64,000 nucleotides of DNA, from the NCBI GenBank assembly GCA_013203185.1, contig JABMOS010000068.1:19889-83888 (forward strand). Reading direction: 5' to 3'. This document shows positions 30,287 through 58,374 of this stretch, one piece after another. Each line of letters starts with the position of its first letter. Position 1 is the first letter of the stretch. Origin of the DNA: Fidelibacterota bacterium (GTDB taxonomy: Bacteria; Fidelibacterota; UBA8477; JABMPR01). A program made the position numbers and the translations under genes. The notes under the pieces were generated by a model that saw only the letters and a list, made by a program, of their open reading frames with translations, was not told the origin of the DNA and ran no database searches.

Positions 30287-30294
30287 GTGTGACT

Positions 30295-32171: not shown

Positions 32172-32205
32172 AATTTAAATTTGGCGTGCCTATTTGGAGA
32201 AACGC

Positions 32206-35134: not shown

Positions 35135-35157
35135 TCATTCAATATGATTTAAATATG

Positions 35158-35190: not shown

Positions 35191-35210
35191 TTCTGGGATG
35201 TCTAGAATCC

Positions 35211-36116
35211 TTATCTGTGATAGGCAAAATTTATAACGGGGAAGGGTAGAACAAACCCATCATCCAGCATACTCAGCGCCATTATACCACCTAAATCAAC
35301 CGCAATACTTTTGCCGATGAACCGGATAGCGAGTGAAATTGGAATTTGGCCAACCTCTGAATCAGGAATAATCCAGTTTTCAGTGACCAGAGCAATTGAG
35401 CTGCTGATGCGCTTATTGCCAGCTAATATGATGATAGGCCGGTCCATAATCTCAGTCTCACCATCGAATTGAACAAAACCCCATCCCAGGGAAACTGAGA
35501 GATGATCAAATTGGTCACCCACAGTTCCTGTGGTAAAGAGAAATCCCATGCCGAACCTGTTATTCTCATCAAAAAATCCTGGTATGGTGAAATACTGAAT
35601 ACCACCAGCAGTTGTGAAGGGCCCTACTGTGGGCAGACTCATTTTTGCACCGGCATAAAAGGGCATATTCTTCAAGGAAAGACCTGGAAAATAAAAGGCA
35701 CCAATCTGAGCTGATATCTGATCTGAGAGACCAAAGTTATAAGAGGGGAACACAAGGCAAAAGTCTGAGCAATACGCCTCCTCCTTGCCTACGGGAAATG
35801 CAGATACTGACCAGAGATAGCGACTTCGGTTGGGGTCAGGGTCATAGATTTTTCCACCCACCATGCGGCCTTGGAATTCACTTACTTGCAAGACGGATGA
35901 TTTGGGTATATTTGCCTGGAATCCAGTTGTTAGATCAACAACATATATGCTGTCATTCTCAGTTACAATACGACCTGTCAGATCGGAGCCATCATTCATG
36001 TTTAGGGTCATGATGGTTTGATCAGCTATTTTCTGGACTGTACTATCCGCATTCTGGGAGGCCATTGCCCCGCTAAAAATGATGGTAAGCGATAATAATA
36101 TAATACGATTGCTCAT
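35211..36116 (-). CDS. exported protein of unknown function
   Basis: The likely start is MSNRIILLSLTIIFSGAMA (ATG 36116; the track ORF extends to 36149), giving a signal peptide. The remainder is rich in G/F/Y beta-strand-like segments and ends in an aromatic residue region (..VINFAYHR). This is compatible with an outer-membrane protein, but no family was recognised. Confidence 0.5.
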   Translation of the reverse strand: MSNRIILLSLTIIFSGAMASQNADSTVQKIADQTIMTLNMNDGSDLTGRIVTENDSIYVVDLTTGFQANIPKSSVLQVSEFQGRMVGGKIYDPDPNRSRYLWSVSAFPVGKEEAYCSDFCLVFPSYNFGLSDQISAQIGAFYFPGLSLKNMPFYAGAKMSLPTVGPFTTAGGIQYFTIPGFFDENNRFGMGFLFTTGTVGDQFDHLSVSLGWGFVQFDGETEIMDRPIIILAGNKRISSSIALVTENWIIPDSEVGQIPISLAIRFIGKSIAVDLGGIMALSMLDDGFVLPFPVINFAYHR

Positions 36117-36298
36117 GAGGTGTTCTCCCTTTGCATCCAATATACTCATATTGGTATACTGACCAACGGCTCATATGGATTGGAGCACTCCGAATCATTA
36201 ATTTTGGCATCCAATTATTCTAGTTTAAGGGTGTTTCATATTTACCTTGGCCTAAATGAAATTTTACAACATATGTTCATAAAAATACGGAGGAAAAA

Positions 36299-36733
36299 AT
36301 GAAACAATTTGGATTAATTGTGGTGGCCATGTCCCTGGGACTCATGCTCATCCAGTGCGGGGGCGCAAAAGAAGAAAAGCCAGCGGCAAAGGCGGAGGTA
36401 TCTGCAGAGACTGCACCAGTGGCTGAAGCGACAGCTGCAACAGGGGAGATGACCTATGACCTGGCCAATGGCGAAGCTATCTACAAAAAATTGTGTTTTG
36501 CTTGTCATGACAATGGTTTGGCAGGTGCTGCAAAGCATACTGACCAGGAGCGTTGGGCAGAAAGTGCAGCCAAAGGCGTTCCTATGCTTATCAAGCATGT
36601 GACGGAGGGTTATCAGGGTAAGTATGGGATGCTACCCCCAAAAGGGACTTGTATGGATTGTACCGACCAGGATATCATCGATGCTGTGCACTATCAGTTA
36701 AAGATGGGTGGGAGCCTTAATAGCAGTAACTAA
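36299..36733 (+). CDS. cytochrome c5-like monohaem class I cytochrome c (probable lipoprotein)
   Basis: Signal with LIQC|GG, an A/E/K-rich linker, haem site CFACHDNG, distal ligand region YGMLPPKG, and the C..C pair (CMDC) typical of c5. Confidence 0.8.
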   Translation: MKQFGLIVVAMSLGLMLIQCGGAKEEKPAAKAEVSAETAPVAEATAATGEMTYDLANGEAIYKKLCFACHDNGLAGAAKHTDQERWAESAAKGVPMLIKHVTEGYQGKYGMLPPKGTCMDCTDQDIIDAVHYQLKMGGSLNSSN

Positions 36734-36766
36734 CTCAAGTATCCAAAGATATACTTCTTAAAAATG

Positions 36767-36795
36767 AAACCCCTGGCCCATGCCGGGGGTTTTTA
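36767..36795 (+). terminator. rho-independent terminator after cytochrome c5
   Basis: 8-bp stem CCCCTGGC / GCCGGGGG (one G-U pair), 4-nt loop, then T5. Confidence 0.7.
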
Positions 36796-36809
36796 ATTAC
36801 TGGGGATTG

Positions 36810-37233
36810 AATGGTATGTGCCCAAATAATGGGAAATGATGCAACCATATCTATCGGTGGTTCAAACGGCCACTTTGAATTAAATACTTTTAAACCGCTT
36901 ATTGCCACTAATGTATTACAATCAGCTCGTGTATTTATTTTTACCATAATTGCTCCGTAGGCATTCGTCCCAATATCCCCAGAATGGAACAACATCTTGA
37001 AAATTCTCTAATGCTGGTAACGGCTTTCAATACGCATATAGGTTATGAAAAAACCGCTAAAATTGTAAAGAAAGCGCAGGCAGAGAATAAAACATTGCAG
37101 CAAGCAGCGGTAGAACTCAAGCTTGTGACCAACAAGCAATTTGATGAATGGGTGAAGCCAGAAGATATGCGTGGAGCAATGGATTAGATGGTGTTCTATC
37201 CACCTTCTCCAGACAAACAATTAGATCTTCATA
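36810..37233 (+). pseudogene. fumC 3'-terminal fragment (degenerate duplicate of 56591..57030)
   Basis: Direct nucleotide alignment by eye with the 3' end of the intact fumC plus about 45 bp beyond its stop. The outer blocks are about 90% or more identical (roughly 9 mismatches in the first ~120 nt). The middle ~70 nt is degraded, with a length change and an in-frame TAG. ORF 36984..37187 encodes ..[59 protein letters not shown].., matching the FumC C-terminus. The N-terminal ~340 codons are absent. Confidence 0.9.
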
Positions 37234-37415
37234 ATCGAGATTTCGGAAACCTTTGATGAATAGACCGGAAGTATGTGCCCTGCTCTAATGGTTCGTGGCG
37301 CAAAATTCCCGAAATGATTCCTTGGATACACAGCTATAATTGTTAATATGTCGTACACGAATGATTATTATAGAACAAATAACACCACAACATAAATTTA
37401 ACCATCAGGGTATGT

Positions 37416-37964
37416 ATGGTATTTTCCAAATCGAGGGGCATGATGATGAGTAATAATCCGACCATAGCCGAACCGTTACCCAACGATATTCAGATTCTAA
37501 ACAGCATGCGCCAGATCATTCGTGCCATTGATGTACACTCACGGAAACTTAAGGCCCAGTATAACATAACTGGACCTCAGTTAATCTGCCTGGGAATCAT
37601 ACAAGCCAGCGGAAGTTCGACAGTGACCAAGATCGCTCACGAGGCTCATCTCAGCACCAGCACTGTCGTTGGCATTCTGGACCGCCTCGAGCATGAGGCC
37701 TACATTCTGCGTGAACGGGACCGTGTCGACAGACGAAATTGGAATGTTCACCTTACCGACCAGGCTGATCACTTACTGAAGATGGTTCCACCATCACTCC
37801 ATTACGGACTGTTGAACGCCCTACAATCCTTGCCTGAAGGCGAACAGGAAGTAATTGCCAACGCTTTCAAGCGAGTGGTGTCGCTTATGGGCGCAGAGAA
37901 TTTGGGTACAGCCCTCCTCCAGAAGATTACCCCCGTCGATAAGAGTAAGCCACCCAGTGAATAG
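37416..37964 (+). CDS. MarR family transcriptional regulator
   Basis: The sequence ITGPQLICLGIIQASGSSTVTKIAHEAHLSTSTVVGILDRLEHEAYILRERDRVDRRNWNVHLT is a winged-helix MarR pattern. The start is ambiguous among several Met codons. Confidence 0.8.
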   Translation: MVFSKSRGMMMSNNPTIAEPLPNDIQILNSMRQIIRAIDVHSRKLKAQYNITGPQLICLGIIQASGSSTVTKIAHEAHLSTSTVVGILDRLEHEAYILRERDRVDRRNWNVHLTDQADHLLKMVPPSLHYGLLNALQSLPEGEQEVIANAFKRVVSLMGAENLGTALLQKITPVDKSKPPSE

Positions 37965-38105
37965 TACCCATCAACCACCTACATAGTAGCCAATTGATTT
38001 ATTAGCTGACCCACGTTACTGACTGATTTCCCCTTTCATTAACCAGAACCATTTCTCCCGGGAACCTTGGCAAAATGATTTATTAAACCATTCAAAGGAT
38101 AATAA

Positions 38106-38801
38106 ATGACAACAACCGAAATCACTAAGAGCAAAAATCTGAGGACCAAGAGCGGTCCTGAATTCAGGATCATGGACTGTGCCCTCATCGCACTGGCAAC
38201 TGGCAAGCGAGCCAGGACTTTAAAGAATCTTCGAGATTATCTGGAAACTATTGAGCCGCAGAGCATCTATTATCATTTCTGGGGGAGTCTTCTGCGTCCT
38301 CGTTTCGAGGATGCTGAGTATCATAATGATTTTGCCGGTTGGGCGGCTCATTCACTCCATGACACCATGACGGCTGAGCGCCTGGGTATAGTAAATCCCC
38401 TGGCATTTCAGACTATGGAAGAATTGCGACAGGAACTCATGGACATTATTGATGAACGCATCGATGAGTTAGAAGTTCTACCTGCTTCTTCCAAGGATAG
38501 TCAGTTTGAATTTATCAGTTCAGACATGGTTGTATTCAGGTCAGATACAGTAATTAGGACAGCAGCCGAACTGTTGAAGGTCATACCCACGCTATCTCTG
38601 GGTAGCATCTTCTACCACTTCATTGATGCACGCCGGCGAACTGAGGTGTCCCATGACGATTTTAGCACCTGGCTCCAGCAATATGAATGTGCAGAAGCCG
38701 TTCAGGGGCTTGCCGAAATTGACCCATTCTTTACCTCTCTCAGCGCTTTGCGCCAGGAGATCACCGAAATACTAACTAAACACTTATCTGGAGACTTATG
38801 A
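38106..38801 (+). CDS. conserved-looking protein of unknown function with an internal two-fold repeat
   Basis: 231 aa. Two related segments are present: SIYYHFWGSLLRPRFEDAEYHNDFAGWAAHSL and SIFYHFIDARRRTEVSHDDFSTWLQQY. Its stop overlaps the start of the TreT-like gene (ATGA). Confidence 0.6.
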   Translation: MTTTEITKSKNLRTKSGPEFRIMDCALIALATGKRARTLKNLRDYLETIEPQSIYYHFWGSLLRPRFEDAEYHNDFAGWAAHSLHDTMTAERLGIVNPLAFQTMEELRQELMDIIDERIDELEVLPASSKDSQFEFISSDMVVFRSDTVIRTAAELLKVIPTLSLGSIFYHFIDARRRTEVSHDDFSTWLQQYECAEAVQGLAEIDPFFTSLSALRQEITEILTKHLSGDL

Positions 38802-40042
38802 GCACTCTTATCGATTCCTATACCAGCATCACAGGCCCGGATGTGGTAGAACAACTAAAACAGTTGGCCAAACCTATGCAGGGGATGCGTGTCGTTCACG
38901 TCAATTCGACGAAAGAGGGGGGAGGGGTGGCCGAGATCCTACACAAAATGATCCCACTCATGAACGATCTTGGGATTGAGACAAGCTGGGAAGTGCTTGA
39001 GGGAAACCCGGAGTTCTATTCCTGTACCAAAATGATGCATAATGCTATCCAGGGAAACCAAGTACCCATCCCTCAAATGCTTCTGGATGCGTATGAACAA
39101 ACAAATTTCGATAATGCTGAACGTCTACGTAAGAAGTTGGAGGAGGCTGATGTTGTTTTCATTCACGATCCACAACCTGCGGCTTTTCTGGGACATATGG
39201 AAAACCGTAAAGGTAAATGGATCTGGCGTTGTCATATCGATGCCAGTACTCCCTATCGACCGGTCTGGAAGTACCTGCGCCAACATATCCGTAACTATGA
39301 TGCTAGTGTTTTCTCATTGGCTAACTTTGCCCAAGCTTTACCACATCCTATTTACCTCATTCCTCCCAGCATCGATCCCTTGAATGACAAGAATTGCGAG
39401 CTCTCAGACGAGGAGGTGAATCAGGTATATTCTGATTTTGGTATAGACCCTGACCGACCTCTCCTGGTGCAGGTATCGAGGTTTGACCGCTTTAAGGATC
39501 CAATCGGTGTCATCGAGGCATTTCGCAAAACAAAACCATTTGTCCCCACGCTACAGCTCGTGCTGGCAGGTGGTGGTGCCAGCGATGATCCTGAAGGAAG
39601 AGCTGTTTTGGCAGAGGTTCAACAAGCGGCCCAGGGAGAGTCTGATATCCATATTCTTGACCTGCCGGGTGATGCTCATAGGACTATAAATGCACTGCAG
39701 CGTGCGGCAACCATTGTTGTCCAGAAATCCCTCCGCGAAGGTTTCGGCCTGACGGTGACGGAAGGCATGTGGAAACAAAAACCAGTCATAGGCGGCGATA
39801 CGGGTGGGATTCGTCTGCAGGTAGTAAATCATCATACAGGGTTTCTGGTGAACTCTCCAGAGGGAGCGGCACTTAGAATCCGCTATCTCATGCGCAATCA
39901 AGGGAAACTGTTAGAGATGGGTCTAAAGGCAAAAGCCTTTGTAAAGGAAAATTTTCTTATCACCAGACATCTTCGCGAATATCTCACACTCATGCTTTCC
40001 CTGCGCTCCACTGCTAAGGATAGAATTTATCTTGATTATTAA
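38798..40042 (+). CDS. treT: TreT-like GT4 glycosyltransferase (trehalose glycosyltransferring synthase family)
   Basis: Close collinearity with my recollection of archaeal TreT: VVHVNSTKEGGGVAEILH, HDPQPAA, WRCHID.S.P, IPPSIDPL..KN, QVSRFD..KD, DDPEG, QKS.REGFGLTVTE.MWK.KPVIG..GGI..Q. It might instead act as an accessory GT of the OtsA/OtsB pair. Confidence 0.75.
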   Translation: MSTLIDSYTSITGPDVVEQLKQLAKPMQGMRVVHVNSTKEGGGVAEILHKMIPLMNDLGIETSWEVLEGNPEFYSCTKMMHNAIQGNQVPIPQMLLDAYEQTNFDNAERLRKKLEEADVVFIHDPQPAAFLGHMENRKGKWIWRCHIDASTPYRPVWKYLRQHIRNYDASVFSLANFAQALPHPIYLIPPSIDPLNDKNCELSDEEVNQVYSDFGIDPDRPLLVQVSRFDRFKDPIGVIEAFRKTKPFVPTLQLVLAGGGASDDPEGRAVLAEVQQAAQGESDIHILDLPGDAHRTINALQRAATIVVQKSLREGFGLTVTEGMWKQKPVIGGDTGGIRLQVVNHHTGFLVNSPEGAALRIRYLMRNQGKLLEMGLKAKAFVKENFLITRHLREYLTLMLSLRSTAKDRIYLDY

Positions 40043-40056
40043 CAGAAGGATAAGCC

Positions 40057-40833
40057 GTGCGTATACTTAATCGTGAATTTGATTTTGAAGGCTTCTACGG
40101 TGCTCTAAAAGGGGATGGGCCGAAGCTGTTGCTCCTTGATTATGATGGTACTCTAGCCCCGTTTCGCACCGAGCCCAAACTGGCTGTGCCTTATCCAGAA
40201 GTTCTACCTTTATTGAATGAAATCATTCAGTCACCCCAATTACGGGTCGTTATAATCTCAGGTAGAGCCATCGAAGAACTGAAACCGCTGATAGTATTAA
40301 ATCACCCCATCGAAATGTGGGGATCCCACGGCAGGGAACGTCTCTTGCCAAATGGTTCTTACATCCGGATGGAGGTGTCCAAAAAGCAGGAGGACGGTAT
40401 GAGCATGGCTATTCAGGCTGTGTTTGATATTGAAGCGATGGTTCGATCAGAGTCCAAACCAAGCGCTGTGGCTTTTCACTGGCGAAAGCTGTCTGCAACT
40501 AGTGTCCCTGGCGTGGCAGGAAAAATAAGATCAACTCTAGACAAAATCGCATTATCACATAATCTCGAAGTTAAATCCTTTAATGGAGGTCTTGAGATTT
40601 TGGCTCCTGGGATGGATAAAGGGCAAGCTGTCCGCGAGGTTCTGAATGATCTGCCCCTGCAGGCGACAATTGCCTATGTGGGTGATGATCTTACCGATGA
40701 AGACGCGTTCAAGGAGCTCAACTACAAAGGACTATCAGTCCTTGTGGGAGACACTCCGCGAAAAACACAAGCTGATCTTTGGCTGCAACCCTCTGAGGAA
40801 CTCATCTGGTTTCTCGAGAAATGGAAAAATTAA
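40057..40833 (+). CDS. otsB: trehalose-6-phosphate phosphatase
   Basis: HAD motifs LLLDYDGTLAPF, ISGR and YVGDDLTDEDAF. GTG start. Its stop overlaps the otsA start region. Confidence 0.85.
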   Translation: MRILNREFDFEGFYGALKGDGPKLLLLDYDGTLAPFRTEPKLAVPYPEVLPLLNEIIQSPQLRVVIISGRAIEELKPLIVLNHPIEMWGSHGRERLLPNGSYIRMEVSKKQEDGMSMAIQAVFDIEAMVRSESKPSAVAFHWRKLSATSVPGVAGKIRSTLDKIALSHNLEVKSFNGGLEILAPGMDKGQAVREVLNDLPLQATIAYVGDDLTDEDAFKELNYKGLSVLVGDTPRKTQADLWLQPSEELIWFLEKWKN

Positions 40834-42398
40834 TGAAACAAAACACAATGACCCCAGCAGGGGCAATACATGCCTGGAATGTGGGCAAACAGCACAAAAT
40901 GGTTATCGTATCCAATCGTTTGCCTGTTGTCGTCCAGGATAAAGGCGAAGGGCAGTGGGAGGTGAAATCCGGCTCAGGAGGTCTGGTTACCGCCCTGGCA
41001 CCGGTATTGCGGGATCGCGGTGGAACCTGGATCGGTTGGCCAGGTCATGTGGATAAGGATTCTCAGGGGGTCGATGATCTATTACGGAAACATGATGAGG
41101 AGATAGGATATTCACTGCGTCCGGTTATGCTGGATGATGAAGAAGTGGAAAATTATTATAAGGGGTTCTCAAATGAAACATTGTGGCCCCTCTTCCATGA
41201 TCTCATCGATCACAGTCAGTTCAAACCAGAGTACTGGGACGCCTATCAGCGAGTGAATCGCAAGTTTGCAGAGGTCGTCAAATCAAATATAGAACCGGAA
41301 GACTTCATCTGGATCCACGACTATCACTTGATCAGTGTTATTAGCTATCTCCGGGAGATGGGCGTAAAAAACAAGGTTGGTTTTTTTCTTCACATTCCCT
41401 TTCCCCCCACGGACATCTATTCCCGACTTCCATCAAGATTAGAGGTTTTGAATGCCATGCTGGCGTACGATCTGGTTGGTTTTCAGTCAGCGCGTGACAG
41501 ACGAAATTTTGTACAGAGTGTACGCTCCTTAAAGGACAAGCCCAAGATCAAAGGAAAAGGGCAGGTCATAGGGATCCAGGGAGAAATGGGCAAGCTTAAA
41601 GCTGGTGTATTCCCTATCAGTATTGACTACAAGGAATTTAACAGTGCTGCGCAAAGCGCTGAGGTAGCTCAGAGTAGCAGCGTATTGCGTCAACTTTTTC
41701 CCAACCAGAAGATAATTCTGGGCGTGGACCGTTTGGATTATACAAAGGGTATCCCTGAGCGATTGCGATCCTTCCGTGAAGCTCTGCGACGTTTTCCTGA
41801 GCTGATTGGACAATTAAGCATGATTCAGATACTGGTGCCCAGCCGGCGAGATATCCACAAATACGAGGATTTAAAAATCGAGATTGAGAGGATGATTGCT
41901 GAGATCAATGGCGAATTCACTCGGCCAGGATGGCTGCCCATCGAGTATCAATTTCGATCATTGGATCGTAAGGAGTTGCTGGCCTATTACCGGGTGGCAG
42001 ATATCATGATGGTCACACCGCTGAAAGATGGAATGAATCTAGTGGCCAAAGAGTATTGTGCCTGCAACATAGAGGGCAATGGCGTTTTGATTCTCAGTGA
42101 GTTTGCAGGAACGGCTGCCCAGCTAAAATTAGGGGCTATACTGGTGAACCCTCATGATACAGTGGAATGTGCAGAAGCAATTTTCATGGCCTTTCACATG
42201 GAAGAAAAAGATCGCAAAATCAAGATGCAGAAACTGAGGCGTAATGTAAATCGGAGCGACATTTTCGACTGGGTCGATAGCTTCCTAAAGGCGGCATTCT
42301 CAATCGGACTTGGCAGTTTTCCACTTCTGGCGGACTATCGGCCTCTCAAGGAGGGCCGAGAGGCTGTAATCAGGGTGGAGTCAACAGGGACTCTCTAA
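40821..42398 (+). CDS. otsA: alpha,alpha-trehalose-phosphate synthase (GT20)
   Basis: GT20 motifs IVSNRLPV, GSGGLVTAL, WIGWPG, FSNETLWPLFH, IWIHDYHL, FFLHIPFP, LG.DRLDYTKGI and TPLKDGMNLVAKEY. An alternative coupled start is TAATG at 40833. Confidence 0.9.
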   Translation: MEKLMKQNTMTPAGAIHAWNVGKQHKMVIVSNRLPVVVQDKGEGQWEVKSGSGGLVTALAPVLRDRGGTWIGWPGHVDKDSQGVDDLLRKHDEEIGYSLRPVMLDDEEVENYYKGFSNETLWPLFHDLIDHSQFKPEYWDAYQRVNRKFAEVVKSNIEPEDFIWIHDYHLISVISYLREMGVKNKVGFFLHIPFPPTDIYSRLPSRLEVLNAMLAYDLVGFQSARDRRNFVQSVRSLKDKPKIKGKGQVIGIQGEMGKLKAGVFPISIDYKEFNSAAQSAEVAQSSSVLRQLFPNQKIILGVDRLDYTKGIPERLRSFREALRRFPELIGQLSMIQILVPSRRDIHKYEDLKIEIERMIAEINGEFTRPGWLPIEYQFRSLDRKELLAYYRVADIMMVTPLKDGMNLVAKEYCACNIEGNGVLILSEFAGTAAQLKLGAILVNPHDTVECAEAIFMAFHMEEKDRKIKMQKLRRNVNRSDIFDWVDSFLKAAFSIGLGSFPLLADYRPLKEGREAVIRVESTGTL

Positions 42399-42425
42399 AG
42401 TCTAAATTTTATTAAGGAGCAACAT

Positions 42426-43172
42426 ATGTTACGCAGCGCGATAGACATTTTGGGGTATAACCTGAAGGCATTGGATGGGGAAATTGGAAAATCAAAAGAC
42501 TTCCTCTTCGATGACCAGCATTGGGCCGTACGATATCTCATGGCTGAAACTGGACGTTGGCTACAGGGTAAACGGGTGCTAATCTCACCAATATCAATCG
42601 AACAACCAGATCGTGATGCACGCGTTTTTCCAGTGAATTTAACCAAACAGCAGATTGAAGACGCGCCTAATGAGGGTGAAGATATGCCTGTATCCCACAA
42701 ATTTGAAATCGAGTTCTTCAAGTATCATCAATGGCCCTATTACTGGAATGGTGGGTATCCCTGGGGCATCCTCATCCCAATGGAAAGGACTAATATGAAT
42801 AAGCCTGCTGGGAGAGACTCTCTAGATGATATTGAAGGTGATAAAAATCTCCGCTCCCTGAACGAGGTCAAGGGCTATAACATTCAAGCGACCGATGGCC
42901 ATATTGGTCATGTGGAAAATCTGATCCTCGATGACGAAACCTGGACCATTCGCTACCTTGTGGTGGATACACGTAATTGGCTGCCGGGAAAGCGAGTGCT
43001 GGTTTCACCTTCATGGGCTGAAAAAATCGATTGGGCAAAAAACACTGTAGACGTCAATATGAGCAGAGATCAAATCAAGAATAGCCCCGATTACGATGAC
43101 TCAAAACTCATGACTCGGAAATTCGAAAACAGTTTATTCAAGTATTATGGAGTCCCAGGGTACTGGTTATAG
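42426..43172 (+). CDS. tandem PRC-barrel domain protein
   Basis: Two PRC-barrel units: LGYNLKALDGEIGKSKDFLFDDQHWAVRYLMAETGRWLQGKRVLISP and VKGYNIQATDGHIGHVENLILDDETWTIRYLVVDTRNWLPGKRVLVSP. Confidence 0.8.
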   Translation: MLRSAIDILGYNLKALDGEIGKSKDFLFDDQHWAVRYLMAETGRWLQGKRVLISPISIEQPDRDARVFPVNLTKQQIEDAPNEGEDMPVSHKFEIEFFKYHQWPYYWNGGYPWGILIPMERTNMNKPAGRDSLDDIEGDKNLRSLNEVKGYNIQATDGHIGHVENLILDDETWTIRYLVVDTRNWLPGKRVLVSPSWAEKIDWAKNTVDVNMSRDQIKNSPDYDDSKLMTRKFENSLFKYYGVPGYWL

Positions 43173-43336
43173 CGAAGATTTCGCCCAATCTGGATTAGCT
43201 CGTGAACCTCATTTACTTCGTTACAGATGGGAATCATGACCAGGGTGAGTATGGATTGATTCGCCTGGCAAGAAGTCGGGGTGGTCACCGGAGTGGAATG
43301 TCGAGGTGGTGGCAAAGAGAATAACCTCAGGACTGC

Positions 43337-44467
43337 ATGTCTCGAATCAACTCCCCGAATACTTGCATCGAAAACATAACTGAACTGGAAGCTTTACACA
43401 TGGACTTATTTTTAATCTATCTGGATAAACATTCATCAACCCTGCTCTTAGTAGCCAGTTTATTGGGTTTTTCTCTGGTGATCCGCTATGGTTTTGCACC
43501 TAAGATTCTGGAACTGTTTCGTCGGGTGAAGGGTGTCAAGATCTCTGTAGAATTGCTTTATCAACCATTGAGTAATTTGAGCATACCTGTCTTCAGTATG
43601 TTTATCACACCCATTCTCAGCCTACCCACACAATTCAATGCCGTTTTCCAACATATGATGCAGATTTGGCTAATTGGTGCTTTAGCCTGGTTGCTCATTC
43701 GGATCTTGGTCCTTTTTAAAGAATTAATTCTAGGTCAGTATCAGCTTGACGCTAAAGACAACTTGAAAGCCAGGCAGATCAGCACCCAACTACTAATGAT
43801 AGAACGTGTTGTTAATGCAGTGATTCTGTTAATTGCAGGATCCATCATCCTTATGAGTTTTGATAAAGCGCGTGAAATCGGATTCAGTTTACTTGCCTCA
43901 GCTGGTATTGCAGGAATTATTCTTGGTTTGGCTGCTCAACGCAGTCTGGCAACACTATTTGCAGGTATCCAACTGGCTATCACCCAGCCTATCCGCATCG
44001 ACGATGTGGTCATTGTGGAGCATGAATGGGGATGGATAGAGGAGATAACTCTGACGTTTGTTGTTGTGAGAATATGGGATCAAAGACGCCTGGTCCTGCC
44101 AATTACCTACTTCATAGAACACCCCTTCCAGAACTGGACCAGGAAGCGAGCTGACCTGTTGGGCACTGTGTATCTGTATGTTGATTACAAAATGCCCTTG
44201 GACGATTTGCGGACTGAATTGGACAGAATTGTCAAAGAATCCCCGTTGTGGGACGGTCGAGTGGCAAAAATTCAGGTCACCAATGCAACGGAAAAGTCGG
44301 TTGAGCTGCGCGCCCTGGTAAGCGCAGAAAATGCTTCTAACGCCTGGGATCTTCGCTGCCTGGTGCGTGAAGATCTGCTCACTTACATACAACGGCACTT
44401 CCCTGAAAGTCTTCCCAGGATAAGACTCGACCGAGGTTTTCCAGAGCAAGGGGAGAGCAATGTCTGA
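43337..44467 (+). CDS. MscS-family small-conductance mechanosensitive channel
   Basis: TM helices followed by the pore helix and beta domain: AGIAGIILGLAAQRSLATLFAGIQLAITQPIRIDDVVIVE..WG.IEEITLTFVVVRIWD.RRLVLP. The true start may be the internal MDLFLIYL. Confidence 0.85.
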   Translation: MSRINSPNTCIENITELEALHMDLFLIYLDKHSSTLLLVASLLGFSLVIRYGFAPKILELFRRVKGVKISVELLYQPLSNLSIPVFSMFITPILSLPTQFNAVFQHMMQIWLIGALAWLLIRILVLFKELILGQYQLDAKDNLKARQISTQLLMIERVVNAVILLIAGSIILMSFDKAREIGFSLLASAGIAGIILGLAAQRSLATLFAGIQLAITQPIRIDDVVIVEHEWGWIEEITLTFVVVRIWDQRRLVLPITYFIEHPFQNWTRKRADLLGTVYLYVDYKMPLDDLRTELDRIVKESPLWDGRVAKIQVTNATEKSVELRALVSAENASNAWDLRCLVREDLLTYIQRHFPESLPRIRLDRGFPEQGESNV

Positions 44468-49451: not shown

Positions 49452-51134
49452 ATGACCGTTGCTGAGTTGATTATTAAAGCACTTGAGGTCGAAGGGGTGA
49501 AGTACGTTTTTGGCGTGCCTGGAGAAGAAACTGAAGATCTGCTTTTTGCCCTTGAGCAGTCGTCTATCATCTTTGTTCCCACCCGTCATGAACAGGGTGC
49601 AGCCTTCATAGCTGATGTATATGGGAGAACCACGGGCAAAGCAGGCGTATGCCTGGCTACCCTGGGACCTGGAGCCACAAACTTGATCACAGGTATTGCT
49701 GATGCCTACCTGGATAAGGCACCAGTGGTAGCTATAACAGCTCAGGCCAGTTCGGTTCGTGTCCATAAAGAAAGCCACCAGGTTCTGGACATTCTCAATA
49801 TGTTGAAACCCATCACCAAATGGAACGCCAGCATCCAAAATCCTCTGGCGGCCAGTGAAATCGTTCGCAAAGCATTTAAGATGGCCCAGTCAGAGAAACC
49901 GGGTCCTACCCATATTGAATTACCTGAAGATGTAGCGGCTGAAGTCACCAGCTTGCCTGCTCTGGTATCTGGAGGTGTTCGAAGAAGTGCTCCTGACCAC
50001 AAGGCTATTCAGGTCGCCATGGAATTGCTGGGTCAAGCCCAGGCACCCATTATCCTTGCTGGAAATGGCGCTATCCGCAAGCGGGCCAGTAAGCATATCA
50101 GAGAATTTGTCGCCCAGACGGACATTCCAGTGATCTCCACCTTCATGGGCAAGGGTGCCATTGATGATAGAGATCCCCATTCACTGTACACCATTGGCGT
50201 CCCTGGCAGGGATTACCAGATGTGTGCCCTGGAACGAGCTGATCTGGTTTTAGCCATTGGTTATGATATTGGAGAATACGATCCTGCGAAATGGAACCCT
50301 ACCGGTGATAAACAGATCATTCACATCGATTTTGATCCCGCCGAAGTCTATGAATACTACCAGCCGAAGGTTGAGGTCATCGCCGATATATCAGCCAGCA
50401 TGTGGGAATTGAATCGTCAGGTCGCTGAAAAGCAGCTCAAGTTCCATCCCACCTGGTTTGCCAATCTCCGCGAAACGATTGAAAGCGATTTTAGAGCCTA
50501 CAGGATGAAGCCAGGGGAGGCATTCACCGTGCCAGGCAGTCTCCATATTATCCGAGAATACATGCGCCCAGGTGACATGATGCTCTCAGATGTGGGTAGC
50601 CACAAAATGTGGATCGGTCGCAACTTTCCAGTCTATGAAGCGAATTCCACCTTTATCTCAAATGGGCTGGCCACCATGGGTATCGCCCTGCCCGGTGGCA
50701 TCGGTGCAAAATTAGCCCATCCTGAAAGACGGGTGGTAGCCGCCATGGGAGATGGGGGTTTTCTCATGAATGTACAGGAGATCGAAACAGCAAAACGCAT
50801 GGGTCTGGGATACCCCATCATCGTCTTCAATGACAATGATTATGGACTCATTCGCTGGAAACAGACCAGCAGTACGGGCAAAACCTTTGGCACGTCCATT
50901 AGCAACCCTGATTTTGTTAAATTAGCAGAGAGCTTTGGAATCGAAGGCCACTCACCCAAGACTCTGGATGAGTTGGATGCCACCTTAAAGCGGGTGATCG
51001 AGGGCCAAGTCCTCAGTATCGTGGAGATCGCCATTGATCCGCGTGTCAATTTCGAGCTCACACAAAAATTGAATCAGAACATCTGTGAACGCTTTGAATT
51101 TCCTGAATTAAGCAGCAAAGGAGAACCCTCATGA
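49452..51134 (+). CDS. ThDP-dependent acetolactate-synthase-like enzyme; candidate 2-oxoglutarate decarboxylase by context
   Basis: 560 aa with ELIIKALEVEGVKYVFGVPGEE, RHEQGAAFIADVYGR.TGKAGVCLATLGPGATNL, and the ThDP motif GDGGFLMNVQEIETA...NDN. A strong AAGGAG RBS is present. Its stop overlaps the SSADH start (ATGA). Confidence 0.85.
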   Translation: MTVAELIIKALEVEGVKYVFGVPGEETEDLLFALEQSSIIFVPTRHEQGAAFIADVYGRTTGKAGVCLATLGPGATNLITGIADAYLDKAPVVAITAQASSVRVHKESHQVLDILNMLKPITKWNASIQNPLAASEIVRKAFKMAQSEKPGPTHIELPEDVAAEVTSLPALVSGGVRRSAPDHKAIQVAMELLGQAQAPIILAGNGAIRKRASKHIREFVAQTDIPVISTFMGKGAIDDRDPHSLYTIGVPGRDYQMCALERADLVLAIGYDIGEYDPAKWNPTGDKQIIHIDFDPAEVYEYYQPKVEVIADISASMWELNRQVAEKQLKFHPTWFANLRETIESDFRAYRMKPGEAFTVPGSLHIIREYMRPGDMMLSDVGSHKMWIGRNFPVYEANSTFISNGLATMGIALPGGIGAKLAHPERRVVAAMGDGGFLMNVQEIETAKRMGLGYPIIVFNDNDYGLIRWKQTSSTGKTFGTSISNPDFVKLAESFGIEGHSPKTLDELDATLKRVIEGQVLSIVEIAIDPRVNFELTQKLNQNICERFEFPELSSKGEPS

Positions 51135-52489
51135 AAGCCATCAATCCAGCCACCGGCGAAATTATAAAAGATTATCCTGAACATTCCAGTCAAGAGGTTC
51201 AACACATTCTAAGCAGCACACAATCAGCTTGGGAGGATTGGCGACGAACCAGTTTTGTTCATCGTTCTACACTCATGGGGCGAGCTGCAGATGTCCTGCG
51301 CAATAATTCTGAAAAATATGCAAGGATCATGTCAGTGGAAATGGGCAAGGTGATCACGGAAGCCAGGGCGGAGGTGGAAAAATGCGCCTGGGTTTGTGAA
51401 TTTTATGCTGAGCATGCTGAAACCTTTCTCCAGGATGAAATGATAAAAACTGAAGCTTCGAAGAGTTTCGTGTCCTTTGATCCCATGGGGATCGTCCTGG
51501 CTGTCATGCCCTGGAATTTTCCCTTCTGGCAAGTGTTCAGATTTGCTGCCCCAGCACTCATGGCTGGCAATGCTGGTGTGTTAAAACATGCTTCCAATGT
51601 ACCGGGGTCGGCTTTGGCCATTGAAGAGGTTTTTCATGAAGCAGGTTTCCCTCCTGATATATTTCGAACTCTGATGATCCCAGCCAAACAGGTTGAAGAC
51701 GTCATCAGGGATCCCCGAGTCCGCGCCGTGACCCTGACAGGGAGTGAGGGTGCCGGGATGCAGGTTGCCTCCATTGCAGGTAGTGAGTTGAAGAAAACCG
51801 TGCTGGAATTAGGCGGTTCAGATCCCTATATCGTGTTGGAGGATGCTGATATTCCGGCCTGTGTTGCCATGTCAGCCAAGTCGAGAATGATCAATACAGG
51901 ACAAAGTTGTATTGCTGCCAAGCGCTTTATCGTCGTTGAGTCAAAGGTGGCTGAATTTGAAAAGGCACAAGCGGAGATTCTCAGCCAGCTTCGAATTGGT
52001 GATCCTCAGGCGGAAGACACACAGGTTGGACCAATTGCCAGGGCCGATCTCCGGGATGAACTTCATGACCAGGTGACTCGCACCCTTGAGGCTGGAGGCC
52101 GTCTGGTAACAGGAGGTACATTTGTGGATGGGCCAGGAGCTTTTTATCAGCCAACGGTTATCTCAGATGTTAAAAAGGGGATGCCCATTTATTCTGAAGA
52201 AACATTTGGACCTGTTTCAGCCATTATACCAGTCAAAGACGCAGAGGAAGCCATTGCCGTGGCCAACGATTCAGAGTTTGGGTTGGGAGGCTCCTTATGG
52301 ACTGCCGATGTGAACAGGGGTGAGGCATTGGCCCGACGGGTGGAATCAGGGGCTGTTTTTGTGAATGGTATGACCCTGTCGGATCCGCGGATGCCGTTTG
52401 GCGGAATCAAGAAATCTGGCTACGGCAGGGAGCTTGGTACCTATGGAATTAAAGAATTTGTAAATGTAAAATCCATATGGATAGCCTGA
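51131..52489 (+). CDS. NAD(P)-dependent succinate-semialdehyde dehydrogenase (Sad/YneI type)
   Basis: Collinear with my recollection of E. coli YneI: INPATGE, MPWNFPFWQVFR, LKHASNVPG, ELGGSDPYIVL, NTGQSCIAAKRFIV, DLRDELH.QV, ANDSEFGLGGSLWT, FVNGM..SDPRMPFGGIKKSGYGRE. Confidence 0.9.
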   Translation: MKAINPATGEIIKDYPEHSSQEVQHILSSTQSAWEDWRRTSFVHRSTLMGRAADVLRNNSEKYARIMSVEMGKVITEARAEVEKCAWVCEFYAEHAETFLQDEMIKTEASKSFVSFDPMGIVLAVMPWNFPFWQVFRFAAPALMAGNAGVLKHASNVPGSALAIEEVFHEAGFPPDIFRTLMIPAKQVEDVIRDPRVRAVTLTGSEGAGMQVASIAGSELKKTVLELGGSDPYIVLEDADIPACVAMSAKSRMINTGQSCIAAKRFIVVESKVAEFEKAQAEILSQLRIGDPQAEDTQVGPIARADLRDELHDQVTRTLEAGGRLVTGGTFVDGPGAFYQPTVISDVKKGMPIYSEETFGPVSAIIPVKDAEEAIAVANDSEFGLGGSLWTADVNRGEALARRVESGAVFVNGMTLSDPRMPFGGIKKSGYGRELGTYGIKEFVNVKSIWIA

Positions 52490-52684: not shown

Positions 52685-55477
52685 ATGGAAAATGATCTCT
52701 TTCAAATAAAAAGCACTTTGCAATTAGGTAAAACTCGGTATTCCTATTACAGCCTCACGGAGCTAAAAAAGCAAGGGTATCCCATAGAGAAATTCCCTTT
52801 TTCCATTCGCATTTTATTAGAGAACGCTTTGCGCAATTTTGATGATTTTGCAGTGACCAAAGAGGCCATTGATACCCTTCTGAACTGGAAACCAAAAGGG
52901 TCGGCCAAGGAAATTCCGTTTAAACCAGCCCGTGTTCTGATGCAGGATTTTACCGGAGTTCCAGCCGTAGTGGACATTGCAGCACTGCGCTCGGAAGTAG
53001 CGAGAAAAGGTCATGATCCCAATACCCTTAATCCGCTTATTCCTGTTGATTTGGTGATAGACCACTCGGTACAGGTAGATTACTTCGGCACTGAATATTC
53101 CTATCAACGCAATATAGACGAAGAATACAAACGCAACGCTGAGCGATATCAATTTTTGAAGTGGGCTCAGAAATCCTTCGACAATTTTAGTGTCGTTCCG
53201 CCGGGAATGGGAATCTGCCATCAGGTGAATCTTGAATATCTCTCAAAAGGCGTGATTGAAAGAAATGGAGAAGTATTCCCGGACACATTGGTGGGAACAG
53301 ACAGTCATACCCCAATGGTCAACGGCATTGGCGTTCTGGCCTGGGGTGTTGGTGGCATTGAGGCAGAAGCCGCTATTTTGGGACAACCAATTTATTTTAT
53401 TATGCCTGAAGTTATTGGTCTAAAACTAACTGGCAAACTTCCCCTGGGCTCAACCGCAACAGACCTGGTCTTAACCATTGCCAACTTGCTCCGTGAATTT
53501 GGTGTGGTAGGAAAATTTGTTGAGGTTTTTGGTGCCGGGCTGGATCACCTTTCAGTACCAGACCGAGCAACCATAGGTAATATGTCGCCCGAATTCGGTT
53601 GCACCATCACCTATTTCCCCATTGATGATAAAACCCTGGATTATATGCGGAAAAGCAACCGCCCTGAAGAGCATATAGAATTGGTTGAGTCGTATTGCAA
53701 AGCCAATATGCTCTGGCGGGAGAATGAAGATAAGATCAGCTATACAGCTGTTTTGGAATTAGATCTGTCAACGATAGAGCCTACTGTTGCCGGCCCGAAA
53801 CGCCCACAGGATAAAATTCTCTTAAAAGACTTCAAAAACAGATTTATCGAGTTGCTGGATAAATCGTTTGACCGCAAATACATCATACAGGAAAGCCGTG
53901 AGAACCAACAACCCATAACGACGTGGAATGCGGAAGGAGGAGATCAACCCGTACATAAAGCAGATACCAAATCATTAAAAACAGAAACAGAAGTGCATGA
54001 AAAAGATGGATTAAAGACAGTTTGGATTACACAAAATCAAGAGAAATTCATGCTTTCTGATGGTGCCGTGGCCATAGCAGCTATAACCTCTTGCACCAAT
54101 ACCTCAAATCCATATGTAATGATCGGGGCCGGTCTAGTAGCTCGAAAAGCCAGGGAGCATGGTATTGATGTAAAACCCTGGGTAAAAACGTCGCTTGCAC
54201 CCGGTTCTAAAGTAGTGACCGACTATCTTGAAAAGGCAGATTTAATGAAGGATTTGGAAGCCTTACAATTTCATCTGGTTGGCTATGGCTGTACTTCCTG
54301 TATTGGAAATTCAGGTCCTTTACCTGAGCAAATTGCGAAAGCAATTGATGAACATAATATCGTCGTGGCATCGGTACTTTCCGGAAATCGAAATTTTGAA
54401 GCGAGAATTCACCCTCAGGTTAAAATGAATTTCCTGATGTCTCCCATGCTGGTGGTGGCTTATGCCCTTGCAGGACGTGTGGATATTGATTTGATAAATG
54501 AGCCGCTAAGCTATGATTCCAATCAGGAACCGGTATACCTGAAAAATATTTGGCCCACAAATGATGAAATAAATGAAGTTTTAAACCTGGTATTGTCTCC
54601 TGGCGATTTTGCTAAAAATTATGGTGAAATTTTTGAGGGGAATGAAACCTGGAGAGATCTGAAAGTTCCCACCGGAAAATTGTATGAATGGGACAAGAAT
54701 TCCACCTACATCAAAGAAATTCCATTCTTTCATGATCTTTCTGAACATCCGGAACCACTAAAAAATATTCAAGACGCACGGGCTTTGCTTGTGTTGGGTG
54801 ATAGCATCACCACCGACCATATCTCTCCCGCAGGCGCTTTTAGTCCGGCATCTGCTTCTGGAAGATATTTGTTAGAGCAGGGCGTAAAAAAAGAGGATTT
54901 TAATTCCTATGGATCGCGTAGGGGAAACGATGAAGTGATGGTGCGTGGTACTTTCGCCAATGTTCGCATCAAGAACAAATTGGCAACACAAGAAGGTGGA
55001 TACACTACATTTTTACCTACCGGGGAAGAACTATCTGTATACGATGCTTCTGTAAAATACAAAGATACACATACTCCCTTATTGGTGCTTGCCGGAAAAG
55101 AATATGGTAGTGGCTCCTCCAGGGATTGGGCAGCTAAAGGCACATTCTTATTGGGGATAAAAGCCGTATTGGCTGAAAGTTACGAACGGATCCACAGAAG
55201 TAATTTGGTTGGAATGGGCGTCCTGCCGCTCCAATATAAAAATGGAGAAACTGCCGCAAGCTTAGGGCTATCTGGCAAGGAAGTGTTCTCGATAAGCCGT
55301 ATGGCAGAGGATCTTAAGCCGTTGAAAAAAGTCCAGATAATCGCCAAAAATGAGCTGGGGGAAGAAAAGAAATTCCATGCAATCGCCCGTCTCGATTCCA
55401 AAATAGAAATTGAATACTACCGGCATGGCGGCATACTGCAATATGTGTTGAGACGTTTTTTACAAAAGGAGGATTAA
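52685..55477 (+). CDS. acnA: aconitate hydratase A
   Basis: 930 aa with PARVLMQDFTGVPAVVD, VIDHSVQVD, PPGMGICHQVNLE, GTDSHT, ITSCTNTSNP, GCTSCIGNSGPL, LSGNRNFE.R, GDSITTDHISPAG and GSSRDWAAKG. Full-length AcnA/IRP pattern. Confidence 0.95.
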   Translation: MENDLFQIKSTLQLGKTRYSYYSLTELKKQGYPIEKFPFSIRILLENALRNFDDFAVTKEAIDTLLNWKPKGSAKEIPFKPARVLMQDFTGVPAVVDIAALRSEVARKGHDPNTLNPLIPVDLVIDHSVQVDYFGTEYSYQRNIDEEYKRNAERYQFLKWAQKSFDNFSVVPPGMGICHQVNLEYLSKGVIERNGEVFPDTLVGTDSHTPMVNGIGVLAWGVGGIEAEAAILGQPIYFIMPEVIGLKLTGKLPLGSTATDLVLTIANLLREFGVVGKFVEVFGAGLDHLSVPDRATIGNMSPEFGCTITYFPIDDKTLDYMRKSNRPEEHIELVESYCKANMLWRENEDKISYTAVLELDLSTIEPTVAGPKRPQDKILLKDFKNRFIELLDKSFDRKYIIQESRENQQPITTWNAEGGDQPVHKADTKSLKTETEVHEKDGLKTVWITQNQEKFMLSDGAVAIAAITSCTNTSNPYVMIGAGLVARKAREHGIDVKPWVKTSLAPGSKVVTDYLEKADLMKDLEALQFHLVGYGCTSCIGNSGPLPEQIAKAIDEHNIVVASVLSGNRNFEARIHPQVKMNFLMSPMLVVAYALAGRVDIDLINEPLSYDSNQEPVYLKNIWPTNDEINEVLNLVLSPGDFAKNYGEIFEGNETWRDLKVPTGKLYEWDKNSTYIKEIPFFHDLSEHPEPLKNIQDARALLVLGDSITTDHISPAGAFSPASASGRYLLEQGVKKEDFNSYGSRRGNDEVMVRGTFANVRIKNKLATQEGGYTTFLPTGEELSVYDASVKYKDTHTPLLVLAGKEYGSGSSRDWAAKGTFLLGIKAVLAESYERIHRSNLVGMGVLPLQYKNGETAASLGLSGKEVFSISRMAEDLKPLKKVQIIAKNELGEEKKFHAIARLDSKIEIEYYRHGGILQYVLRRFLQKED

Positions 55478-55577: not shown

Positions 55578-56984
55578 ATGAATGATATGAAATATAGAAT
55601 TGAAAAAGATACAATGGGTGAATTAAAAGTGCCTGAAAATTGTTACTGGGGTGCTCAAACAGAACGTTCGCGCAATAATTTTAACATTGGTCCTGAAGGC
55701 TCTATGCCCAAAGAGATCATTCATGCTTTTGCTTATTTGAAAAAAGCAGCAGCGATGACAAATCATCAATTAGGTGTGTTAGCTGCCGACAAACAGAAAC
55801 TGATAGTAAAGGTATGTAATGAAATCATTGCCGGTAAGCTGGACAAGGAGTTCCCTCTGGTTATCTGGCAAACTGGTTCAGGGACACAATCCAATATGAA
55901 TATAAACGAAGTAATTGCCAATCGGGCGCACGTGATGCAAGGTCATAGATTGGGAGAGGGCACACTATATATTCATCCCAATGATGATGTCAATAAATCA
56001 CAATCATCCAATGATACTTTTTCATCTGCCATGCATCTAGCCACTTATAAGCTGGTGATGGAAAATACTATTCCCGGGATAGAAATATTGATAGATACAT
56101 TGCAGAGTAAATCGCAAGATTTCAAAAGTATTGTTAAAATCGGTCGTACTCACTTCATGGATGCTACGCCATTAACCTTAGGTCAAGAATTTTCAGGTTA
56201 TGCACAACAACTAGTTAATGGTATCAGGACCATCAAAAATGCCCTGAAATCAGCTCGCGAATTAGCCCTGGGAGGAACAGCTGTTGGCACAGGACTAAAC
56301 GCTCCCAAAAGATATGATTTATTAGTAGCAGAAAAAATTGCAGAACTCACCGGCTTTCCATTTATTACTGCCCCCAATAAATTTGAAGCCATCGCTGCAC
56401 ACGACGCCATGGTTGAATTATCTGGAGCATTAAAACGTTGTGCAGTTTCGTTGATGAAAATAGGAAATGATATACGCATGTTGAGTTCTGGTCCACGTTG
56501 TGGCATAGGAGAGCTAATTATTCCAGAAAATGAACCGGGTTCATCTATCATGCCCGGTAAAGTGAATCCCACACAAGCTGAAGCGTTAACAATGGTCTGT
56601 GCCCAAATAATGGGAAATGATGTAACCGTATCTATCGGTGGTTCAAACGGCCACTTTGAATTAAATGCGTTTAAACCGCTTATTGCCGCCAATGTATTGC
56701 AATCAGCTCGTTTGATAGGTGATGCCTGTGTTTCATTTAACAATCAGTGCGCAGTGGGCATTCGCCCCAATAACCCCAGAATTAAACAACATCTTGAAAA
56801 TTCTCTTATGCTGGTAACGGCTCTTAACACGCACATAGGATATGAAAAAGCCGCTAAAATTGTTAAGAAAGCACAGGCAGAGAATAAAACATTGCAGCAA
56901 GCAGCAATAGAACTCAAGCTTGTGACCAACAAGCAATTTGATGAATGGGTGAAGCCAGAAGATATGTGTGGGGGCACAGATTAG
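55578..56984 (+). CDS. fumC: class II fumarate hydratase
   Basis: The motifs [10 protein letters not shown]....[39 protein letters not shown] and the signature [11 protein letters not shown], with length 468 aa. Confidence 0.95.
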
Positions 56985-57042
56985 ATGGTGTTCTAGCTAC
57001 TTTCTCCAGACAATCAATCAGATCATAGGAGCGAAGGTTGGA

Positions 57043-58374
57043 ATGAGGCCGCAGATTACAAATAAAACTTACTCTCCAGATTGTTCCACGGGTGCGAGGA
57101 TATGTCTTCCTGATACGCAGTTCCCAAGATTGGTAATCATTGGCGGAGGTTTTGCTGGATTGGCTTTGGTCGAGGGTCTCAAAAACCTAAATATCCAGAT
57201 CGTGTTGATTGATCGTAACAATTTTCATCAATTTCAGCCCCTGCTCTATCAGGTTGCCACCAGTGGTTTAGAGCCAGATAGTATCGTTTTTCCATATCGG
57301 AAGCAAATATCAGGCTATCCGAATACCATCTTTCGCATGGCAGATGTTCAAGATATCAAGCCATCAACAAATACCGTCATCACCAATAAGGGAAGCATAA
57401 GTTATGATTACCTGGTATTGGCGACGGGTACTACCAATAATTTCTTTGGGATGACCGAGCTTGAGGAGAATAGCATAGGGCTCAAGGATATCCGCGATTC
57501 CATAAACATCCGCCACAGGATGCTACACAACCTGGAGCAAGCGGCAATTACTTGTGATGCTGCTGAGCAGGACGCTCTCACCAATTTTGTGATAGTAGGT
57601 GGCGGTCCCGCAGGAGTGGAGATGGCTGGAGCTTTGGCGGAATTTTGTAAATTCATCCTACCCAAAGATTATCCAGAATATCCATCCTCCATCATGAAGA
57701 TTTATCTGATGGAGGCATCTGATAAAATACTGCCTGCAATGTCTGACAAAGCATCATCTGAAGCCCTGAAATACTTAAGACAAATGGATGTACAGGTAAT
57801 TCTGAAAGAAATGGTTACCGGATTCGATGGTCTTAATGTGACAACCAAAGACAATAAAACCATCCTGGCAAAAAATATGATCTGGACTGCTGGTGTGAAA
57901 GGGCAGTTCCCCAACGGTCTTGCTGTTCAAAATAACATTGCAAGTGGAAATCGATTAAAAGTGGATCAGTATCTGAAACTTGAAGGACATGCTAATATTT
58001 TTGCTGCGGGGGATATTGCTGCCGTGATTAACGGAGCGACATCAGTCGCACACCCTCAAGTGGCTCAAGTTGCTATTCAGCAGGGCAGGTACCTTGCTCA
58101 TTCATTGCAACATATTCTAAAACAACAGCCATCAAAGCCCTTCATCTACAAAGATAAAGGGACCATGGCAACAGTTGGGAAACGAAGGGCAGTAGCAGAT
58201 ATAGGACTATTTGAATTTTCTGGCTATTTCGCGTGGTTATTGTGGTCATTAGTTCATTTAGTCTCTATTAGCGGTTTTAAAAATAAGCTCATGGTCGGCT
58301 TGAATTGGGTCCTGAGCTATATTTCCTATGATAAGAGTAATCGGTTAATTATTACAGATTCAAAGATCAAATAA
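57043..58374 (+). CDS. ndh: type II NADH dehydrogenase (NDH-2)
   Basis: The motifs RLVIIGGGFAGL, FQPLLYQVAT, LVLATG, FVIVGGGPAGVE and AAGDIA. The track ORF starts at 56968 inside fumC. The ATG at 57043 (MRPQITN), preceded by AGGAG, is preferred. Confidence 0.85.
   Translation: MRPQITNKTYSPDCSTGARICLPDTQFPRLVIIGGGFAGLALVEGLKNLNIQIVLIDRNNFHQFQPLLYQVATSGLEPDSIVFPYRKQISGYPNTIFRMADVQDIKPSTNTVITNKGSISYDYLVLATGTTNNFFGMTELEENSIGLKDIRDSINIRHRMLHNLEQAAITCDAAEQDALTNFVIVGGGPAGVEMAGALAEFCKFILPKDYPEYPSSIMKIYLMEASDKILPAMSDKASSEALKYLRQMDVQVILKEMVTGFDGLNVTTKDNKTILAKNMIWTAGVKGQFPNGLAVQNNIASGNRLKVDQYLKLEGHANIFAAGDIAAVINGATSVAHPQVAQVAIQQGRYLAHSLQHILKQQPSKPFIYKDKGTMATVGKRRAVADIGLFEFSGYFAWLLWSLVHLVSISGFKNKLMVGLNWVLSYISYDKSNRLIITDSKIK

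Follow-up and report, generated by a model that had tools for sequence, protein, structure and literature searches.

A decaying 3' fragment of a class II fumarase gene at a synteny breakpoint in a Fidelibacterota genome, and its probable origin by duplication and deletion

Gene fragments left behind by segmental (tandem) duplication followed by deletion are well established in bacterial chromosomes. The locus described here, where part of a fumarase gene (fumC), its 3' end, occurs a second time, resembles such remnants in that the partial copy has the same orientation as the intact gene and includes non-coding flank, that one copy is selected while the other decays, and that no mobile genes accompany them; it is unlike the usual examples in that the gene concerned is itself a xenologue of recent arrival, that the relic falls exactly on a breakpoint between species and that no intermediate is seen. 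Duplications of a gene 3' end can also be made by an integrase, the example closest to this one being icd and icdC around prophage e14 in E. coli K-12. There too, a diverged 3'-end duplicate of a central-metabolism gene forms a direct repeat flanking other genes, but at e14 the intact gene precedes the element, the fragment trails it and the integrase is encoded inside, whereas here the order is reversed, there is no recombinase and the intervening DNA is not one element.

Two further types of event leave comparable scars. Homology-facilitated illegitimate recombination, reportedly described by de Vries and Wackernagel in 2002, and Campbell-type crossovers can likewise place a gene stub at the edge of an acquired region in a variable locus. 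A Campbell crossover in fumC would, however, put a 5'-complete copy next to the upstream flank, where we find a 3' stub, and a plain single crossover of this kind was rejected because the upstream copy begins at codon 339 and not with the 5' part of the gene. Templated insertions of the MMBIR/FoSTeS type also introduce a short, nearby-copied piece at a rearrangement junction, although the present piece is 418 nt long, its source lies 19.8 kb off and there is no demonstrable microhomology at its junctions.

The two copies lie within a 64,000-nt stretch of contig JABMOS010000068.1 (positions 19889-83888) that was analysed as a whole and is referred to as the window (Table 1). The upstream copy (copy A, 36810-37227) aligns with the downstream one (copy B, 56591-57024) in the same orientation, both on the plus strand, with 374/418 identical positions (89.5%, counted by columns outside one 16-nt gap). 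A repeat search of the window returned the pair as two direct-repeat blocks, 36810-36930 against 56591-56711 (93%, spacing 19781 nt) and 36930-37227 against 56727-57024 (88%, spacing 19797 nt), which a gapped alignment joins through a single 16-nt gap in copy A. Copy B comprises fumC codons 339-468 (the last 130 codons), the stop codon and 40 nt beyond it, only the first ~12 nt of this tail being common to Bacteroidota homologues. The first 120 nt of the copies agree at 93.3% of positions and the 33 nt immediately behind the gap at 69.7%; for the 224 nt that lead to the stop codon the figure is 90.6%, and 35/40 positions of the non-coding tail match. The longest identical runs are 59, 38 and 32 nt. 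Copy A starts 13 nt past the T-run of the cytochrome c terminator and ends ~115 nt before a marR promoter/operator motif that is conserved in relatives. When positions 36701-37400 were compared by blastn with the whole 3.07-Mb assembly, copy B was recovered at 86.2% identity over 434 columns (E 1e-148); there is no third copy of the fumC 3' end in the assembly by this search.

Table 1. Features of the window at and between the two copies of the fumC 3' end
Feature	Position	Strand	Basis or remark
Cytochrome c gene (Cytochrome_CBB3 family)	36299..36733	+	Pfam PF13442; last gene collinear with the sister population
Intrinsic terminator of the cytochrome c gene, hairpin and T-run	36775..36796 (stem 36775-36791)	+	Terminator scan; hairpin also in the sister population (L227)
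fumC 3' fragment (predicted pseudogene), codons 339-468 and stop	36810..37187	+	Repeat search, alignment; 16-nt deletion after 36929
Copy of the 40-nt non-coding tail after the fumC stop	37188..37227	+	35/40 identical to 56985-57024
marR-to-MscS osmoprotection operon, genus-native floating module	37416..44467	+	Pfam; relatives
ThDP enzyme and SSADH pair, genus-native	49452..52489	+	Pfam; 92% aa identity to G013 (closest species)
acnA, second aconitase, of Bacteroidota origin	52685..55477	+	87-90% aa identity to Bacteroidota proteins
Intact predicted class II fumarase gene fumC	55578..56984	+	Lyase_1 and FumaraseC_C; Bacteroidota-like
Repeat copy B: fumC 3' end and 40-nt tail	56591..57024	+	Repeat search, alignment
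ndh (NDH-2)	57043..58374	+	Pfam, JGI gene call; start 19 nt past repeat end

An earlier note on this DNA had described a duplicate of the fumC 3' end lying in the same orientation ~19.8 kb upstream of the intact gene, between the cytochrome c terminator and the marR promoter, with similar outer blocks around a decayed central stretch, and had proposed a blastn self-comparison as a check; alignment and blastn agree with this description. Two of its details stand in part. Homology does extend past the stop codon into non-coding DNA, but for 40 nt and not ~45, and there is an in-frame stop, a TAG, but it is a consequence of the 16-nt frameshifting deletion after 36929. Since homology at 35 of 40 positions continues through the non-coding tail, the duplication occurred at the level of DNA, as had been argued. 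A dispersed repeat or MITE family was considered and rejected: the genome holds two copies only, a DNA search found no copy in 22 congeneric genomes and no match outside its own genome among 40 relatives, and the repeat search found no inverted repeats at the fragment ends. Rfam and tRNA scans at the fragment assigned it to no family, a sub-threshold BjrC68 match corresponding to the terminator hairpin.

Comparison with a sister population (86% nucleotide identity; six contigs from six samples) locates the fragment with respect to conserved gene order. The sister is collinear with the window over 26975-36711 by blastn, and on through the terminator to 36802; its cytochrome c (L227) is 95% identical in amino acid sequence. 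After 36802 the sister sequence is wholly different, and this divergence falls 7 nt before the first position of the fragment (36810). By this comparison the fragment sits at a true synteny break, pinned to within 7 nt, and the earlier suggestion of a rearrangement scar is borne out at its left edge. The sister carries, behind its cytochrome c gene and at the same breakpoint, a piece of a multi-copy intergenic repeat (L227:10652-10706). In our reading, a mosaic region peculiar to this species, at a rearrangement hot spot, has the stub as its left boundary. Look-ups of 17 window proteins in clusters at 90% identity returned only the same population, one sister population (for cytochrome c and hyp301) and one relative of the osmoprotection operon.

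Two intergenic repeats occur in the window as pairs, 47899-47960/58474-58535 and 49277-49357/59607-59686, and their order around czcD is the same as around a ferredoxin gene. They gave no Rfam or tRNA match; the right-hand repeat, which follows both of these genes, bears a tRNA T-arm-like motif on the minus strand and is multi-copy across the genus, often at contig ends. It is of this repeat that the sister population has a piece behind its cytochrome c gene.

The intact gene is predicted to encode a class II fumarase (FumC). Its 468-residue product matches Pfam Lyase_1 and FumaraseC_C over their full lengths (1.3e-105 and 1.8e-23) and has the GSSxMPxKxN loop, of 11 residues, at about 56538-56570. 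No class II fumarase was matched in the other 22 species of the genus or in two sampled genomes of the family's other genera; the genus core enzyme is a class I fumarase (21/23 genomes), and apart from this species the genus uses class I fumarase only. Among 400 genomes of the host phylum the best FumC identity is 62%, and the protein is 84-88% identical to the fumarases of Carboxylicivirga, Marinifilum and Labilibaculum and to those of marine contigs. At the nucleotide level, a TARA scaffold shares 86.6% identity with the fumC region, over a stretch that opens 56 nt before the ATG and closes 11 nt beyond the stop. A maximum-likelihood tree places FumC inside the Bacteroidota clade of these relatives (starred support), apart from the native fumarases of the host phylum, and a scan of metagenomes with FumC found nothing closer than 78% amino acid identity and no intermediate arrangement.

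The neighbouring acnA gives a similar picture. The core aconitase of the genome is encoded separately (G000:C32), and acnA is 83.9% identical at the nucleotide level to a contig of Carboxylicivirga sp. A043 (L225) that also bears a fumC relative, the two genes being 2.5 kb apart on this 11-kb contig. By these comparisons fumC and acnA are xenologues from a Marinilabiliales-like Bacteroidota donor, present within the genus in this species only. No carrier of the acnA-fumC unit was found in a plasmid library. A possible link through a small cytochrome c gene beside acnA in Carboxylicivirga was dropped as coincidence, its product being only 25% identical to the cytochrome of the window. Two other Marinisomatota genomes (L216, G343:C6; L217, G093:C275) have fumC genes that the tree puts within the Bacteroidota clade or beside it, with long branches; either additional transfers, independent of this one, or contamination of the bins would explain them. 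In the present species, a Bacteroidota acnA-fumC unit has been added to the species' own class I fumarase and core aconitase, right behind the native 2-oxoglutarate decarboxylase/SSADH shunt genes and before ndh; the locus shows in a specific case how transfer together with rearrangement can build up a cluster of TCA-related genes. This cross-phylum acquisition, placed next to the native shunt genes, is a by-product of the analysis that holds more interest than the stub itself.

The two copies differ sharply in their recent evolution. The fragment lacks a start codon and begins just past the catalytic SS loop of the intact gene, so that the loop is absent from it. The deletion shifts the reading frame, with the TAG 9 codons further, and behind it the fumC frame is open for 85 codons to the natural stop. 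With a homologue (L033) as outgroup to polarise the differences, the fragment branch carries 16 changes (~13 non-synonymous and ~3 synonymous) and the intact-gene branch 22, of which 16 are synonymous and 6 non-synonymous. The copies are asymmetric in the same way in their pairwise distances to L214, L033 and L215. The changes on the fragment branch are spread over the codon positions and clustered beside the deletion. This pattern of substitution indicates that copy A drifts whereas copy B is under purifying selection. We read the fragment as a decaying pseudogene and predict that it is an inert relic with no function of its own; frameshift, missing start and SS loop, and the preponderance of non-synonymous changes all fit the decay that had been proposed for the upstream copy. 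Directly 3' of the deletion (36930-36962) there are 10 differences in 33 nt, where ~3.4 are expected, which probably reflects one complex mutational event.

The intact branch has 16 changes at third codon positions, against 4 for the fragment branch (p about 0.007), which is not what a simple duplication, with copies of the same age and mutation rate, predicts. Candidate explanations for the excess of synonymous change in the intact gene are codon amelioration, allelic replacement and separate acquisitions. GC3 is 0.27 in the donor-like genes, 0.34 in intact fumC and 0.42 in the host, and in a test for amelioration 7/11 changes were toward host-preferred codons, which is not significant. In the maximum-likelihood tree the protein branch of intact FumC is 0.11, against 0.056 for its TARA sister; the longer branch agrees with faster evolution after transfer. 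The divergence of the two copies at third positions, 0.167, falls within the range for orthologues of this species and its 86% sister (0.12-0.30 in five of six well-aligned genes; 0.39 in Peptidase_M6), and the event is old, although this divergence shows age only and not mechanism. Gene conversion between the copies was discounted, since a longest identical run of 59 nt does not, by our estimate, significantly exceed what 10% divergence allows.

The stub is probably the leftover of a duplicated segment that bore fumC and that afterwards was mostly lost by deletion. A segment with the fumC tail as its right end would have been duplicated along one of two paths. In the first, the whole block from marR to fumC would have been duplicated in tandem and ~19.4 kb deleted thereafter; in the second, acnA-fumC would first have landed behind the cytochrome c terminator and been copied next to the SSADH gene, the first copy then losing ~3.9 kb. 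In either case an illegitimate deletion would have spared the last 378 coding nt and the 40-nt tail of the upstream copy, after which the stub would have drifted free of constraint while the downstream copy stayed under purifying selection. We infer such a duplication path from its end state only, and tandem duplication with deletion is indistinguishable from copying and deletion of the acnA-fumC unit; taken together, as the probable explanation, the two are favoured over a one-step capture of the fragment, which is unlikely though it retains some plausibility. The features found are those of a duplication remnant, namely homology into the non-coding flank, low copy number, and loss of coding capacity and relaxed constraint in copy A only. 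As for intermediates, the same species yielded neither a complete second copy nor a junction lacking the fragment, and the order cytochrome-acnA-fumC-marR was not seen.

The right ends of the two copies nearly coincide, lying where the donor-like 3' flank gives out; under tandem duplication of the whole block this agreement is a coincidence. The flank of copy A after the tail (37200-37345) matched no Bacteroidota locus. The fragment is a real but ordinary scar of duplication and deletion and not the end of a mobile element. Its value is that of a small molecular fossil: it keeps the transferred gene in an older form, with whose help the changes of the working fumC after its entry into a new phylum can be told from neutral drift.

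The alternative that survives best, that no complete second gene ever contained the 418 nt, which joined in one step when the variable block became attached behind the cytochrome c terminator, is a possible but unlikely course of events. The piece could have been filler, or a templated insertion for which template switching used fumC, 19.8 kb off, as its source, or a separately integrated end piece of the donor DNA. Such a capture would fit the position of the fragment within 7 nt of the synteny breakpoint, its right end, which is also the end of the donor-like 3' flank, as for an incoming linear molecule, and the lack, anywhere in the genome, of further remnants of acnA or of the 5' part of fumC. 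Against this, 418 nt is long for bacterial filler DNA and microhomology is demonstrable at neither junction; the divergence of the copies lends no support, in that it speaks for old age and not for a route.

Considerably less probable is that the repeat pair is a working handle for recombination that needs no dedicated recombinase, in which a RecA crossover within the 59-, 38- or 32-nt runs would loop out or amplify the 19.8-kb block; in a milder version the stub would be the fossil of the first landing site of acnA-fumC. The looped or amplified block would hold the osmoprotection operon, the 2-oxoglutarate shunt, acnA and the 5' part of fumC, and the copy number of stress and TCA genes could then be switched at the population level. 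On the milder version, acnA-fumC would later have moved beside the shunt genes, and the assembly of a metabolic gene cluster would have been caught midway.

Retention of the fragment for any function is highly improbable, whether as a 67-residue miniprotein corresponding to the FumC C-terminal domain (36984-37187), as an antisense regulator of fumC or as a handle of homology for RecA. The 85-codon open frame behind the deletion, within which JGI called a 67-residue gene with a PF10415 match, the identical runs, whose lengths would permit homologous recombination, and the unexpectedly short fragment branch at third codon positions could each be taken to favour a function. Yet the 4-5 changes that the fragment itself acquired in the 67-codon ORF are all non-synonymous, which argues against a conserved miniprotein; the site, between a terminator and the marR promoter, has no convincing promoter of its own, and the fragment is known from one population only, so that it gains no comparative support.

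The sequence comes from a metagenome-assembled genome with 155 contigs and a completeness of 82%. The junctions were checked against independent contigs. Such a source would admit a chimeric contig, a binning error or a strain-variant piece of fumC inserted in the wrong place, and one JGI assembly is indeed broken inside the ThDP gene; another contig, however, bridges that break. The order cytochrome c-fragment-marR recurs at 99.995% identity in JGI 3300032524, on a contig of 86.9 kb, and at 100% in 3300033274, and the fumC-ndh side is found in two JGI contigs. In a third run (SRR28106102), one Logan contig ends at 36877 and another begins at 37140, both identical to the window in the overlaps, and these breaks coincide with the ends of exact stretches (31-mers or longer) common to both copies. 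De Bruijn assemblers break at shared k-mers when both copies of a repeat coexist, so that breaks inside the repeat are to be expected if both copies are present. Given the same junctions in two JGI assemblies and the identity of the third run in its overlaps, an assembly chimera is very unlikely, contrary to one alternative in the earlier note; genes typical of the genus on both flanks likewise speak against artefact in general, which we consider highly improbable.

Integration of an island at the fumC 3' end by a site-specific recombinase, with the repeats as attL and attR, has a superficial likeness to icd/icdC at e14 in that direct repeats of a gene 3' end flank 19.8 kb. Integration, however, leaves the intact gene first and the stub last; here the stub lies upstream, with the 5' part and promoter of the intact gene inside the segment, so that this second alternative is contradicted by the geometry and scarcely credible. 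Neither an integrase nor an excisionase is encoded, and the repeats do not share a sharp identical core, their longest run being 59 nt within 89.5% identity. The content is a mosaic of genus-native modules found separately in relatives, and composition is mostly genome-typical and unchanged at either repeat. By Pfam, none of the 17 ORFs from marR to fumC (37.4-57.0 kb) or the two flanking genes encodes an integrase, transposase or excisionase, as had been noted at the outset, and the segment has no recombinase, IS, tRNA or curated RNA family of note.

The content of the segment is correspondingly mixed. The osmoprotection operon, in the order marR-DUF5752-TreT-OtsB-OtsA-PRC-MscS, is found in four different neighbourhoods in the genus (L123, L120, L122 and L233) at 52-77% amino acid or 79% nucleotide identity. 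Its proteins are far more divergent (52-77% amino acid identity) than flanking orthologues in the closest species (86-94%). In that species (G013), the ThDP enzyme and SSADH are both 92% identical to those of the window and are followed by neither acnA nor fumC, and the ndh orthologue (85-90% amino acid identity) comes instead after an RND pump gene and a PII-like gene; the variable region thus extends to the right of intact fumC. The tetranucleotide distance over 37-52 kb lies between the 6th and 84th percentiles, rising to the 90th-92nd around DUF5692/czcD at 45-50 kb, and a mild shift begins at ~52 kb and runs past the right repeat, with no change at either repeat. The view that the repeats delimit one accessory block did not hold, nor did a compositional check across the block reveal a boundary at either of them: the marR-MscS and ThDP/SSADH modules are native to the genus, only acnA-fumC is foreign, and variability continues rightward. 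The repeats bound no coherent island but a segment in which genus-native modules are mixed with an acquired acnA-fumC unit.

Two minor observations concern other parts of the window. The N-terminal ~25 residues of NDH-2 (57043-57110) show no relationship to the corresponding part of its orthologue from the closest species, which is otherwise the 85-90% identical protein mentioned above; as ndh starts 19 nt past the fumC tail, the acquisition of acnA-fumC may have remodelled the 5' end of ndh. A 578-nt inverted repeat (17633-18210 against 51401-51978; 71% identity) corresponds to paralogous aldehyde dehydrogenase genes, and a match within the same genome at 17177-18286 (69%) is the second aldehyde dehydrogenase copy.
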